This document shows positions 17,753 to 28,072 of a stretch of DNA of 47,979 nt, piece by piece. Source of the stretch: an uncultured Rhodospirillaceae bacterium (GTDB taxonomy: Bacteria > Pseudomonadota > Alphaproteobacteria > GCA-2731375); contig CAYWYB010000002.1 in assembly GCA_964462145.1 (NCBI GenBank), positions 1 through 47,979 of the forward strand. The letters run 5' to 3'. How positions within the stretch are numbered: position 1 is the first letter of the stretch; every line of letters starts with the position of its first letter. A program made the position numbers and the translations under genes. The notes under the pieces were generated by a model. It did not search any database. It was not told where the DNA came from and saw nothing but the letters and a program-made list of their open reading frames with translations.

Positions 17753-17827
17753 GCCCACATAGCTCAGGGGTAGAGCACTCCCTTGGTAAGGGAGAGGTCG
17801 TGTGTTCAAATCACACTGTGGGCACCA
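17753..17827 (+). tRNA. tRNA-Thr (anticodon GGT), CCA encoded
   Basis: Folded by hand: acceptor GCCCACA/TGTGGGC, D arm GCTC-AGGGGTA-GAGC, anticodon arm CTCCC-TTGGTAA-GGGAG, variable loop AGGTC, T arm GTGTG-TTCAAAT-CACAC, discriminator A, then CCA. Confidence 0.95.
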
Positions 17828-18403
17828 TATTTTCCAATGACTTAGAAGCTTTTACATCCCGTCACATTAGCCAGGACACACAATTTAGCCGAAAATGGCT
17901 AAGAGACGGTTCACTGGAGTGTCATGGGCTCCTTCTGCGCTCCAGACAAGACTTGCCCGACAATGAGCGGCCAACAGCACAAGGGCGTCGGTGTGTCCTG
18001 AGAACGGCACCCGCCCCCACCGCTACTCATGCATTTCTGCCGGGCGCAGCGAAGCACCGATGAAGAACTGCCACGGTGGCATCATCCTGTAACACTTACC
18101 TACGGGAGCGGCGTCTAATTTGCCATCGTGCGCTCCAAATGTCTCGTTTGACTCTAAACCGCATACACATTGTGTCTCGGAATATTGAAAATAACCCTAT
18201 GAAGACATTATTTCTGTCTCGTCTGGCTGACTTGTCGAGGTATAGCTATTCGAGACAATGTCCTGGGAGCCATGTCTGCAATGCATCCGGCAGCGGGCGT
18301 TATAATAGCGAACGCTGACCGTCTCTTCGTGACCCAGAGCTGACGTGGCGGCAGAGATCATTTTGCCATTAATGCCTACGATTGCATGTGCCTTGGAACT
18401 GCT

Positions 18404-21094
18404 TCAGCTGGCCTCTTGTATGCGGGTTTCGCGTAGGATCGCCTTGATTTCCATACGGCAAGAGCCGCAGTTGGTGCCGGCGTTCAGGGCATTACCGATG
18501 GCATCGACCGTGTTGCAGCCGCCCATGGTTGACGCTTCGATGATTTGGTTGCGTCCGACTTCGAAGCAGGCGCAGACTATGGTGCCGGGATCCGGCTCGG
18601 CACCGGCGGACCTGCCAGCCAACAATCGCAACCGCTGGGTGGGATCAGCAAACTCTGCGTCTAACTGTTCACTGGCCCAGGCGCGGGGAACTGTTATAGC
18701 CTCGGCAGCTACGAACAGCGCGCCCAGGAGTTTTTGGCCTTGAAAACAGGCGAAACGGTGCTGCCCCGCCTGTGCGTCATGGTAGGCAAGCAGTTCCGCG
18801 CCGGCGGTGTCGGTGATCTGCAACAAATCTTGGACAAACGCCGTCCAGTCTTCGGGCGGGCGTTTTCCGGCAAGCTCCATACGCCAACCGGTGCCGGCGG
18901 GCGCCATGGACCAATAGTCCCCGAACCGCTGGCTTGGCTTTGCTGCCATGAGGGCAAGACCGTGCCAAGCAGCCGTGAATGGCGCGATGGCGACGTTGCC
19001 CCGCTTGAATTCAGGTTGGCCGGAAACCGGATCGAGGTTGGCCGCGATCAAGGCGTTGACGCGCCCGTCACTGGCAAATTGATCGTTCCAATGCATGGGC
19101 ACAAAGATCGAGCCGGGCCGCTGCCGCGTCGTCTGCCGAACGCGAACTATAATTGACCCATGGGCGCTGCGGACCCGGGCCAGGGCCATATCCCGCAGTC
19201 CGTATTGCGCGGCGTCGTGGGGATGCACATCGACAAAGGGCTCGGACAGATGCTGCATCAAGCGCGCAGATTTGCCGGTCCGCGTCATGGTGTGCCATTG
19301 GTCGCGAATGCGCCCGCTGTTCAGAACCAGCGGGTAAGCGGCTGACTGCGCCTGGCCGGGTTCGGTATAAACCGTCGCCACAAAACGGGCGCGGCGATCC
19401 GGGGTAAAGAAGTTTCCATTGGCAAAAAATCGGCGTGGCTTTGCCTTATGGCCGGCGACCATGGGCCATTGAAACGGCTGCAGGCGATCGTAGTCATCAG
19501 CGGAAATCGTGTCATGGGCGGAGATGTCAAAATCCCGCGTACCGTCGTTGCGGAAGCCGGACAGTGCCGCATATTCCGAATAGATCCGAGACGGTTGTTC
19601 ATGGCCGAAAGCATCGGCAAAGCCCATGCGGCGGGCGACTTCCTGGATGATCCACCAATCGGGCCGTGCCGCACCGGGCATCGGCAGGAACGAACGTTGC
19701 CGCGAAATGCGGCGCTCCGAATTCGTCACAGTGCCGCTTTTTTCGCCCCAGGCGGCGGCGGGCAGCAGAACGTCCGCCTGGGCCGTTGTATCGGTATGGC
19801 GGGTCACGTCTGAGACCACGACAAAGGGACAGGCTTCCAATGCCGCGCGCACGCTATCAACCTCGGGCAGGCTATCCAGCGGATTCGTCGCCATGATCCA
19901 CAGCGCCTTGACGCGGCCATCGCGTACGGCCTCGAACAATTCGACCGCCTTTAGGCCGGGTTGTTCCGCCAGATTGGTGCTGCCCCAGAAATCGCCGACC
20001 AGGGCGCGGTGTGTGTCATTTTCAATATCCATGTGGCAGGCAAGCTGGTTGGCAAGGCCGCCGACCTCGCGTCCGCCCATGGCATTCGGCTGGCCGGTGA
20101 CCGAGAATGGCCCCATGCCGGGGCGGCCAATACGGCCCGTCAACAGATGGCAATTGATGATGGCATTGACCTTGTCCGTGCCGCTGCGGGATTGATTGAC
20201 GCCCTGGGAATAGACGGTGACCACGCGCTCGGTCCCTGCGAACAGATCGTAAAATTCCTGCAGCGCCGTGGGTTCAAGTTCCGTAAGCCGTGCGACATCG
20301 GCATTGCCAAAAGATTGAGCCGCCACCAACGCCGCATCCAATCCATTCGTGTGTCCATCGACATAGCCACGATCCATGGCGCCTGTATCGTGCAGATGCG
20401 CCAGCAGGCCATTAAACAGGGCGACGTCCGAACCGGGCTTCAACGGCAGATGCAGATCGGCGGCTTCCGATGTCGCGGTCTGGCGGGGATCAATGACGAC
20501 GATCTTGGTGTCGGTCTGATCCCGCGCCGCTGCAATGCGCTGAAACAGCACCGGATGGCACCAGGCCAGGTTGGAGCCAACCAGGACAATGACATCTGCC
20601 AACTCAAGATCTTCATAGCAACCCGGCACCGTGTCGGAGCCGAAGGCCCGCTTGTGTCCGGCGACCGAAGACGCCATGCAAAGCCGGGAGTTGGTATCGA
20701 TATTGGCGGAGCCGATGAAACCCTTCATCAGTTTGTTGGCCAGGTAATAGTCTTCGTTAAGCAATTGACCGGAGACGTAGAACGCGACCGAGTCCGGACC
20801 ATGCGCCGCGATGGTCTCCTGGAAGCGGTCCGCCACCTGGCCCAGCGCGGTATCCCAATCGGACGGCGCACCGTCTACAATTGGCTGCAGCAGCCGATCG
20901 TCCAATGACAAGGTTTCGGCCAGCGCAGTGCCTTTGGAGCAAAGGCGCCCGTAGTTTGAGGGATGCTCCGGGTCGCCTGTTATTTCCGTACTGCCATCGG
21001 CTCGAGTGGTGGCCAGAATGCCGCAGCCCACCCCACAATAGGGGCAGGTTGTCTTAACAGTCGTGCCGCACTTGGAACCAGTACCCTTGGTCAT
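18404..21094 (-). CDS. nasA: Assimilatory nitrate reductase catalytic subunit with a C-terminal BFD-like 2Fe-2S domain
   Basis: N-terminal CPYCGVGCG 4Fe-4S motif, a MopB core, and C-terminal CACFEV...CGSCRMEI. The ATG at 21094 lies 4 nt after the nirD stop. Confidence 0.9.
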   Translation of the reverse strand: MTKGTGSKCGTTVKTTCPYCGVGCGILATTRADGSTEITGDPEHPSNYGRLCSKGTALAETLSLDDRLLQPIVDGAPSDWDTALGQVADRFQETIAAHGPDSVAFYVSGQLLNEDYYLANKLMKGFIGSANIDTNSRLCMASSVAGHKRAFGSDTVPGCYEDLELADVIVLVGSNLAWCHPVLFQRIAAARDQTDTKIVVIDPRQTATSEAADLHLPLKPGSDVALFNGLLAHLHDTGAMDRGYVDGHTNGLDAALVAAQSFGNADVARLTELEPTALQEFYDLFAGTERVVTVYSQGVNQSRSGTDKVNAIINCHLLTGRIGRPGMGPFSVTGQPNAMGGREVGGLANQLACHMDIENDTHRALVGDFWGSTNLAEQPGLKAVELFEAVRDGRVKALWIMATNPLDSLPEVDSVRAALEACPFVVVSDVTRHTDTTAQADVLLPAAAWGEKSGTVTNSERRISRQRSFLPMPGAARPDWWIIQEVARRMGFADAFGHEQPSRIYSEYAALSGFRNDGTRDFDISAHDTISADDYDRLQPFQWPMVAGHKAKPRRFFANGNFFTPDRRARFVATVYTEPGQAQSAAYPLVLNSGRIRDQWHTMTRTGKSARLMQHLSEPFVDVHPHDAAQYGLRDMALARVRSAHGSIIVRVRQTTRQRPGSIFVPMHWNDQFASDGRVNALIAANLDPVSGQPEFKRGNVAIAPFTAAWHGLALMAAKPSQRFGDYWSMAPAGTGWRMELAGKRPPEDWTAFVQDLLQITDTAGAELLAYHDAQAGQHRFACFQGQKLLGALFVAAEAITVPRAWASEQLDAEFADPTQRLRLLAGRSAGAEPDPGTIVCACFEVGRNQIIEASTMGGCNTVDAIGNALNAGTNCGSCRMEIKAILRETRIQEAS

Positions 21095-21098
21095 CTTG

Positions 21099-21446
21099 TC
21101 AGGCCGCCCGTGCCGCCGCCAATGCCGCCAGGTCGAGGAGGATGCGGCCCTCGGCAAGTTTGAGCGAAAATGTCTTAACCCGGCCCTCGTCGGCGCCCTG
21201 CGCCTCGCCGGTCTCCAGACTGATGACCCAATTGTGCAGGGGGCATGTCACGGCCTTACCATGCACGATGCCCTGACTCAAAGGACCGCCGCCATGGGGG
21301 CAACGATCTTCAATGGCGAAAACTTCATCCGGGGCACTGCGGAACACCGCCAGGCAACCGGCGGGCGTCTTGATCACCCGGGCGCCGCGCACGGGAATAT
21401 CATCAAGCGGGCCGACGTCGACCCAGTTTTCTTCTTTCAGTTTCAT
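21099..21446 (-). CDS. nirD: Nitrite reductase small subunit (Rieske-like)
   Basis: A 115 aa protein with CPHGGGPL...CPLHNW motifs. It overlaps the nirB stop by 4 nt. Confidence 0.9.
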   Translation of the reverse strand: MKLKEENWVDVGPLDDIPVRGARVIKTPAGCLAVFRSAPDEVFAIEDRCPHGGGPLSQGIVHGKAVTCPLHNWVISLETGEAQGADEGRVKTFSLKLAEGRILLDLAALAAARAA

Positions 21447-27502: not shown

Positions 27503-27647
27503 ATCAGGCACGGGCGGCCAGAGAGAATGCATTTATCGTAAATATATAGTCCAGAAAACGGGACCCATTCATTTCAACAACAAGCAGATTTGACGGCATC
27601 CCTGCGGGCACCAAACATTTCCCACCAGCGCCGAAGAATCCTGCCAG

Positions 27648-27836
27648 CTAGTTTATCTCGGGATCGAGTTCCTCCAGCTCGATCTGGCTGTCGTTGGGAT
27701 CCGGCTGGCCAAGCCAACGGACGCCCTCCTCGGTTGAAAGTTCGGTCAGATCGCCCAGGATGGCGACGCGTTCAACAACGCTGGCCTGCGGCGCAGTATA
27801 TTTTTCGGCCTTCATTGGAGAGTGTTCTAGCGACAT
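27648..27836 (-). CDS. Small acidic hypothetical protein (62 aa)
   Basis: An ORF from the ATG at 27836 (MSLEHSPMKAEKY...). No recognisable motif, and coding status is uncertain. Confidence 0.25.
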   Translation of the reverse strand: MSLEHSPMKAEKYTAPQASVVERVAILGDLTELSTEEGVRWLGQPDPNDSQIELEELDPEIN

Positions 27837-28019
27837 CTTCGCCCCTGTTTCCGCGGGGCGGGTTGGCGCTGATATGAGAAAGCCAGCGCAGCACCACCCC
27901 TCTGTTTGGTGTTTCTGCGTCTGGCTTGCGTAGGCTCGTTCGCAGGCCAAATCCGCTTTATTAAAGGAGCTTAGGTCGCTTTAACGGTGCTTGGCACACC
28001 CTCTGGCAAGTCCGCTTTT

Positions 28020-28072
28020 CCCTTCGCAAGGGAGAGGCCGTGTGTTCAAATCACACTGCGGGAACCATTTTC
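28020..28072 (+). repeat. Degenerate direct repeat of the tRNA-Thr 3' half (putative attR scar / tRNA fragment)
   Basis: Positions 28020-28071 align without gaps to 17780-17831, from the anticodon stem through CCA and a few nt beyond, at 46 of 52 identities. There is no matching acceptor 5' strand or D arm upstream. Confidence 0.8.

Follow-up and report, generated by a model that had tools for sequence, protein, structure and literature searches.

How did a marine bacterium come to carry a complete set of nitrate-assimilation genes between a tRNA gene and a partial copy of the same tRNA gene? This question is raised by a DNA stretch of 47,979 nucleotides (nt) from an uncultured Rhodospirillaceae bacterium (GCA_964462145.1, contig CAYWYB010000002.1, positions 1 to 47,979), hereafter called the window. 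The host is an uncultured marine alphaproteobacterium, and its relatives are labelled as Rhodospirillaceae or Alphaproteobacteria metagenome-assembled genomes (MAGs). In the window, a 10.2-kb block with the nitrate reductase gene nasA, the nitrite reductase genes nirD and nirB, the transporter gene narK and a PP2C-kinase gene lies between an intact tRNA-Thr(GGU) and a copy of its 3' part. We consider, with a probability of about three in four, that this block (17832–28018) is a genomic island integrated site-specifically into the tRNA-Thr(GGU) gene next to murA. The original prediction, made from the letters of the window, had already read the intact tRNA and the downstream repeat of its 3' part as the footprint of a tyrosine-integrase insertion. 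This reading was supported by an empty site in a sister lineage, by an integrase hotspot at the same tRNA in relatives, and by the absence of close relatives of the nas genes.

The tRNA-Thr Gene and Its Displaced 3' Copy

ARAGORN and Rfam agreed that the window contains one tRNA gene, the tRNA-Thr(GGU). A fragment of this gene was located 10.2 kb downstream of the intact gene in the same orientation, and it starts with the 5' strand of the anticodon stem and ends four bases beyond CCA. The ungapped same-strand alignment on which the original prediction was built (28020–28071 against 17780–17831) was reread and confirmed, with 46/52 identities. The repeat even gained one base leftward (17779/28019), giving 47/53 over 17779–17831 and 28019–28071. 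The longest exact stretch common to both copies was 20 nt. The anticodon accounts for two of the six mismatches, reading GGT in the intact gene and CGC in the fragment. Of the others, the variable loop has one, the 3' acceptor strand has two, and the last lies beyond CCA. The two anticodon loops, TTGGTAA and TTCGCAA, differ at two of seven positions.

The 29-nt core pattern of the repeat was found at two sites only in the window and in none of 100 dinucleotide shuffles. The repeat is secure on statistical grounds, and its layout is the one to be expected from an island in a tRNA gene (tDNA). In the criteria of Islander, the 3' fragment likewise lies on the same strand, downstream of the intact gene (PMC4383910). 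The fragment has neither the 5' acceptor strand nor the D arm, and it was called neither by ARAGORN nor by Rfam, even at E ≤ 10 (27450–28200). These results agree with the earlier statement that the second copy is not a gene. The Rfam miss fits this status, but it also means that Rfam provides no independent confirmation of the fragment.

A third short tRNA remnant was considered in the right non-coding arm of the block. The sequence CTGCGGGCACCA (27602–27613, same strand) agrees with the 3'-terminal 12 nt of the tRNA at all but one position and has C at position 4, as in the fragment copy CTGCGGGAACCA. It could be a very short attachment-site (att) remnant of a nested older element, but it was not significant. 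With 0.32 such matches expected per window and a local alignment score within noise, this candidate was rejected.

Empty Site in the Sister Lineage

The junction from murA over tRNA-Thr to the sensor histidine kinase gene was compared in related genomes. The sister lineage shows an identity of 97% at the amino acid (aa) level in MurA (P0002), 98% aa in the kinase and about 93–94% nt overall, and its divergence at 4-fold sites is about 0.11–0.14. In the sister contig L084, the 3' end of the kinase gene, an intact tRNA-Thr and murA are contiguous, and the 10.2-kb block is absent. Positions 117–11565 of this contig correspond to 17835..6346 of the window, and positions 1–172 correspond to 28188..28019. 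The homology of the sister to the window ends at 17832–17835 and restarts at 28019. In alignment A1, it is the right flank of the displaced fragment, and not the flank of the window tRNA, that shares homology with the DNA following the sister's tRNA. The right flank of the fragment and the flank of the sister's intact tRNA are 95% identical over 111 nt.

The same arrangement appeared in a separate assembly. In the MAG contig L002, whose kinase has 98% aa identity, the kinase gene is followed by a complete tRNA-Thr at the contig end. In samples of the sister lineage, Logan contigs extended from the kinase side only as far as 28081, leaving the right arm and the PP2C-kinase gene uncovered. The site in L084 and L002 is the empty attB, and the block is a presence/absence polymorphism whose limits lie at the two att copies. 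Among 80 kinase loci from other species, none had nas genes, murA or tRNA-Thr after the kinase.

In the empty-site tRNA-Thr of L084 (124–198), position 37 of the anticodon loop is T where A is usual (CTTGGTTAG). The A is present in L002, and the T in L084 may be genuine variation or may stem from an assembly error.

Integrase Islands at the Same tRNA in Relatives

Four further contigs of the sister lineage (L083 and L085–L087) encode a MurA protein identical to that of L084 and carry different DNA right after the tRNA. This DNA encodes a 364-aa tyrosine integrase (PF00589, 3e-28; phrog_1, 1e-65) and, beside it, a 92-aa open reading frame (ORF) with a weak match to helix-turn-helix (HTH)/excisionase proteins. 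The 5' half of the tRNA in these contigs is the empty-site version, and the sequence is swapped from the variable loop on, with GGCCGAAAGTTCGAATCTTTC for GGTCGAGTGTTCGAATCACTC. Such a swap is what an element that restores the tRNA with its own 3' half should leave behind. A swap from the variable loop on would place the crossover on the anticodon side, in agreement with the left limit of the window fragment.

A third lineage (L155; MurA 93% aa, 85% nt) encodes a 70%-identical integrase at the same place after murA-tRNA-Thr. The lineages with MurA identities of 92% (L093) and 85% (L089–L091) have yet other DNA after the tRNA-Thr. Since integrase islands were found in the sister species and in a third lineage, the tRNA-Thr next to murA is an active integration hotspot. 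A scan of IMG/VR with the L083 integrase gave no match.

In the MurA-85% contigs (L089–L091, about 1–9551), the tRNA-Thr has the "island-type" T arm GAAAG..CTTTC, and the DNA 3' of this tRNA is similar to the DNA flanking attL in the L083 integrase island. Luciferase-like monooxygenase, aldo-keto reductase, esterase, MetE-like and xanthine-dehydrogenase-like genes follow the tRNA, without an integrase gene. These contigs may represent a second integrase-less scar at the same tRNA. A displaced tRNA fragment was absent within 9.4 kb.

Gene Content and Non-Coding Arms of the Block

The annotated features are collected in Table 1. To the left of the block, the window carries his genes as well as murA. 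The gene content described earlier, namely nasA-nirD-nirB, narK and the PP2C-kinase gene between the two tRNA copies with no integrase ORF, was reproduced by Pfam and NCBIfam. The start codon of nasA is probably the ATG at 21094, and the mechanical ORF reaches 21157. NasC/NasA were the best specific NCBIfam matches to its product, yet they remained below the equivalog cut-offs (463.8 vs. 1100); the assignment is backed by the domain architecture and by synteny with nirBD in many loci. The PP2C/kinase gene always adjoins narK, and this pair was found in about 50 metagenome loci. Phage structural or conjugation genes were not detected in the block by Pfam or PHROGs, and no nasS/nasT-type regulator was found inside it.

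Table 1. Positions of the tRNA-Thr copies, of the genes and arms of the 10.2-kb block, and of its chromosomal flanks in the window.
Feature	Coordinates	Strand	Evidence or remark
murA, conserved chromosomal flank on the tRNA side	15979..17277	-	PF00275, 5e-103; synteny with hisG/hisD and neighbours in all relatives examined
Intact tRNA-Thr(GGU), attL side	17753..17827	+	ARAGORN; Rfam RF00005, 72.4 bits
Direct-repeat copy 1	17779..17831	+	Anticodon stem to CCA plus 4 nt; 47/53 vs. 28019-28071
Left non-coding arm	17832..18403	.	GC 0.516; sister homology stops at 17832-17835
nasA-type assimilatory nitrate reductase	18404..21094	-	Pfam: Fe4S4, molybdopterin, dinucleotide-binding and C-terminal BFD 2Fe-2S domains
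nirD, nitrite reductase small subunit	21099..21446	-	TIGR02378, 94.4 bits (cut-off 74.65)
nirB, NAD(P)H nitrite reductase large subunit	21443..23893	-	TIGR02374, 903.7 bits (cut-off 578)
Divergent nirB/narK intergenic (promoter) region	23894..24141	.	Divergent layout conserved in metagenome loci
NarK-family nitrate/nitrite transporter of the major facilitator superfamily	24142..25764	+	TIGR00886, 327.6 bits (cut-off 311.7)
PP2C phosphatase/Ser-Thr kinase fusion	25787..27502	+	Pfam PP2C_2 and Pkinase
Right non-coding arm	27503..28018	.	No family matches; GC 0.553
Direct-repeat copy 2, attR side, displaced tRNA-Thr 3' fragment, not a gene	28019..28071	+	
Sensor histidine kinase (890 aa), chromosomal flank on the fragment side	28091..30763	-	HisKA and HATPase_c

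The two arms had been described as long and AT-richer. Their unusual length was confirmed: they measure 576 and 517 nt, whereas intergenic stretches of the window have a median of 74 nt. Their GC contents of 0.516 and 0.553 compare with 0.55 for other intergenic DNA in the window, and the arms are AT-richer only relative to coding DNA. The left arm occupies the position held by the integrase in the related islands L083 and L155. It had a homologue in none of the loci compared, and the right arm had no homologue outside the source lineage. Arm-type repeats were sought in the arms, and only short two-copy matches of chance quality were found.

The right arm contains an orphan 55-aa ORF on the minus strand (27648–27815; MKAEKYTAPQ...). 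It has no family or homologue beyond the source lineage, and it is not preceded by an obvious Shine-Dalgarno sequence. A sample of a 2025 study showed a G>T change at 27818, shortly before its ATG.

Two intergenic regions of the window are very AT-rich: 23978–24141 in the nirB/narK promoter region (GC 0.366, i.e., 0.37) and 33032–33191 (GC 0.31). By a crude ORF call, the longest non-coding gap of the window is 9258–9893 (636 nt, GC 0.57).

The DNA beyond the fragment (28107–38492) encodes the histidine kinase, an 88-aa ORF, a response regulator, an HTH/ScfR-like regulator and a 361-aa ORF. It is 80–82% identical at the nt level to positions 2346–12657 of L001, a 4.9-Mb MAG contig, and most of the proteins are 84–88% identical at the aa level. 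The MurA of L001 (P0066) is only 69% identical to that of the window, though MurA relatives at 85–97% exist. The kinase block may have been horizontally transferred itself, and it could be an older island at the hotspot.

Origin of the Nitrate-Assimilation Genes

The best relatives of the block proteins had aa identities of 83% (NirB), 79% (PP2C-kinase, in L153) and 78% (NarK), and the whole block was about 75–77% identical to its best relatives at the nt level. MurA, by comparison, has relatives at 97, 94 and 92% aa, which were sampled on more than 16 contigs. The sister lineage, which is well sampled, therefore carries no close copy of the block.

The nasA-nirD-nirB/narK-PP2C-kinase layout is widespread, occurring in about 50 metagenome loci, and the named NirB relatives are alphaproteobacterial. 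None of 56 metagenome PP2C-kinase loci had a tRNA-Thr, and only one (L098) had a weak, distant integrase-like match. In L151 (GCA_028284945.1; 16832–17281), which is among the closest NirB relatives, an nrtABC-type transporter replaces narK and the PP2C-kinase gene, and a small TIR-domain gene lies nearby.

Proposed Integration and Its Difficulties

We propose that an incoming element brought a copy of the 3' part of the tRNA, from the anticodon stem to CCA, and that its recombinase was almost certainly a tyrosine integrase. Strand exchange would have occurred in or near the anticodon loop. The working tRNA at attL would then consist of the chromosomal 5' half and, from about 17779, the 3' half of the element. 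The original 3' half would have been displaced by 10.2 kb and would now lie beside the histidine kinase gene (attR, 28019–28071). The cargo would be a complete assimilatory nitrate/nitrite module, and the nas genes were probably the element's own. Later, the integration module would have been deleted, so that a long stretch of non-coding DNA remains at either end. In length, the left arm falls short of an integrase gene, which suggests that the integrase was deleted and not merely mutated.

The left limit of the fragment at the anticodon stem fits the anticodon-centred class of att sites. For tyrosine recombinases, heterology in the overlap region blocks excision. The heterology of the two anticodon loops, the presumed overlap region, would block strand exchange, and the island is thus probably locked in place. 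Under such a crossover, the two anticodon-loop changes must post-date the integration.

Several observations weigh against this proposal. No PF00589 integrase was found by Pfam in any ORF of 17832–28018. The original prediction had pointed to the arms as the place for integrase or excisionase remnants; with the L083 integrase as tblastn query, both the whole window and the arms by themselves returned noise only, and Pfam and PHROGs searches of every arm ORF found nothing. Because the island holds no integrase remnant, the recombinase can be deduced only from the scar and from the neighbouring lineages. No integrase-bearing mobile version of the nas island was found, and the nearest nas clusters (L151–L154) lie in unrelated contexts with neither tRNA-Thr nor integrase.

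The composition of the block is also host-like. Its tetranucleotide distance was 0.0117, against 0.0072–0.0120 for other 10-kb segments. Its GC3 of 0.66–0.73 falls within the host range of 0.60–0.83, and its GC profile is within the host range as well. The difference in k-mer and codon usage between the block and its flanks that might have marked an acquisition was not seen. GC, k-mer and GC3 composition put no foreign mark on the block, and this neither supports nor refutes an island. The host-like composition suggests a compositionally similar donor or amelioration over time.

The tRNA copies themselves present a further difficulty. A crossover in the anticodon loop would require a later change in the fragment, since the two loops differ. 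Moreover, both window copies have the T arm GTGTGTTCAAATCACAC (GTGTG..CACAC, loop TTCAAAT), whereas the empty-site tRNA of the sister has GAGTGTTCGAATCACTC, with three differences. A single integration into a sister-like tRNA would leave the sister-type T arm in the fragment, so an extra step is needed. The window lineage may have had an already altered native tRNA that met a matching attP, or the sharing of the T arm arose by substitutions or by gene conversion. Owing to this puzzle, gain of the block in the window lineage is only somewhat favoured over its precise loss in the sister.

Alternative Explanations and Persistence of the Proposed Island

The scar and the nas genes may differ in origin. 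The scar would then stem from an earlier integrase island, for example of the L083/L155 type, and the nas genes would have entered, or replaced the interior of that island, later by another route such as homologous or illegitimate recombination within it. Successive elements and remnants are known to accumulate at tRNA hotspots (bioRxiv 10.1101/2020.12.28.424599). The nas cluster occurs in many unrelated contexts with no tRNA or integrase near, the long arms without homologues could be leftovers of another element, and the weak 11/12 match to the tRNA 3' end could be an internal boundary. We regard such a composite origin as unlikely, given that the empty site misses everything between the att copies, no internal boundary is statistically supported, no gene remnant of another element is detectable, and the flank near attL does not resemble the one in the L083/L155 islands. 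A purely local origin appears very unlikely. In that case, the fragment would be a decayed tandem tRNA-Thr or a local duplication, the nas genes would be ancestral, and the sister would have lost them by deletion between the copies. The unusual T arm common to both window copies, as in paralogues or after gene conversion, and the host-like composition fit this history. On the other hand, the start of the fragment coincides exactly with the anticodon stem, where att sites of the anticodon type usually have their left limit (PMC4383910), and the T arm of the sister differs from both window copies, so that the sister tRNA is not their simple recombinant. Nas genes occupy this locus in no lineage outside the window, and integrases demonstrably use the same tRNA in relatives.

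It is hardly credible that the window is chimeric, with a nas block from another genome joined via the tRNA-like repeat. The window is apparently metagenomic, and the short-read contigs of relatives often break at the tRNA (L002, L081, L088 and L092), but assemblers would not be misled by an exact repeat of at most 20 nt. Logan contigs assembled independently from the source run matched the window at 100% or near-100% identity. One of them (L081) covers murA through tRNA position 17789, and another (L082) covers the 3' end of narK, the PP2C-kinase gene and the right arm. Others span the right arm, the fragment and the kinase gene (27863–29200), as well as the tRNA 3' half and the left arm. The depth was 8.9–10.3 over all these pieces and was similar for the island and the flank (10.3 vs. 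8.9). In the 2025 study, which used different samples, pieces of nasA, nirB, narK, the PP2C-kinase gene and the kinase gene were found at 100% identity and similar low depth, and a right-arm piece was identical at 255/256 nt.

The integrated island, as we propose it, had been called an old and fixed acquisition. The identical pieces in a second study indicate that the island persists in the lineage, and the similar depth of island and flank agrees with this; fixation itself is beyond these data. The age had been drawn from the six mismatches between the copies. The native and island-borne 3' halves of the sister, however, are already only 43/49 identical at time zero, and the presence/absence polymorphism lies within the clade defined by the 4-fold divergence given above. 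The divergence of the repeat was rejected as a clock, and an old age of the event is not supported.

Comparison with Known Systems

Islands targeted to tDNA are treated in Islander (Hudson, Lau & Williams 2015, PMC4383910), and anticodon-centred "A" sites were described by Williams (2002, PMC100330). As in Islander-type islands, an intact tRNA and a same-orientation 3' fragment downstream define the ends of the window island with nucleotide precision, the fragment starts at the anticodon stem, and a relative has the empty site; the cargo of the window island is metabolic. Unlike those islands, it has no integrase, so that the Islander filter would reject it, and no mobility genes. Its copies also differ at 6/53 positions, including two in the anticodon loop. 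Among the features by which tDNA islands are recognised, only the integrase on board is plainly missing from the window island.

The islands of L083, L085–L087 and L155 have the same target tRNA-Thr as the window island, the same place relative to murA and a similar replacement of the 3' half. They differ from it in carrying a 350–364-aa tyrosine integrase and an HTH/xis-like ORF. The flank near attL and the T arm (GAAAG..CTTTC) of these islands are unrelated to those of the window island, and their contigs end before the cargo.

Assimilatory operons of Proteobacteria with narK, a Ser/Thr kinase gene, nirBD and nasA, for example PA1779–PA1783 of Pseudomonas aeruginosa, presumably have the same gene content, with narK paired with a protein kinase. 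The window cluster differs from them by the att-like tRNA repeats at its bounds. The nitrate-assimilation set of cyanobacteria is narB/nirA/napA.

Tycheposons of Prochlorococcus carry nitrate-assimilation cassettes by tRNA genes, with full and partial tRNA flanks, and integrase-less remnants have been described (bioRxiv 10.1101/2020.12.28.424599). The window island likewise brings nitrate-assimilation cargo to a marine bacterium, is flanked by a full and a partial tRNA and lies at a hotspot that holds different elements in different strains. In contrast, its host is alphaproteobacterial, its target is tRNA-Thr(GGU) and its gene set is nasA-nirBD-narK-PP2C/kinase. The hallmark recombinase and the primase/helicase of tycheposons are absent from it, and we therefore claim no homology to that family.

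We also considered that tRNA-Thr-specific integrases encoded by sibling islands of the L083/L155 type, circulating in this marine alphaproteobacterial clade, might still mobilise the nas cassette in trans, which seems improbable. Repeated exchange at the hotspot, if it occurs, would explain the unusual T arm shared by the att halves of island and host. If the cassette were mobilised in this way, it would be a tycheposon-like "plug-in" nitrate-assimilation system outside cyanobacteria.

The finding in the window is correct and well documented; it is most probably a tDNA cargo island minus its integrase, and it reveals no new mechanism. Island finders that require an integrase would miss such cargo scars. 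Nitrate use by marine heterotrophs is an ecologically important, strain-variable trait, and here it resides on a precisely bounded 10.2-kb cassette. The island would be a clean natural example, outside Prochlorococcus, of nitrate assimilation gained as a block at a tRNA site and then immobilised.

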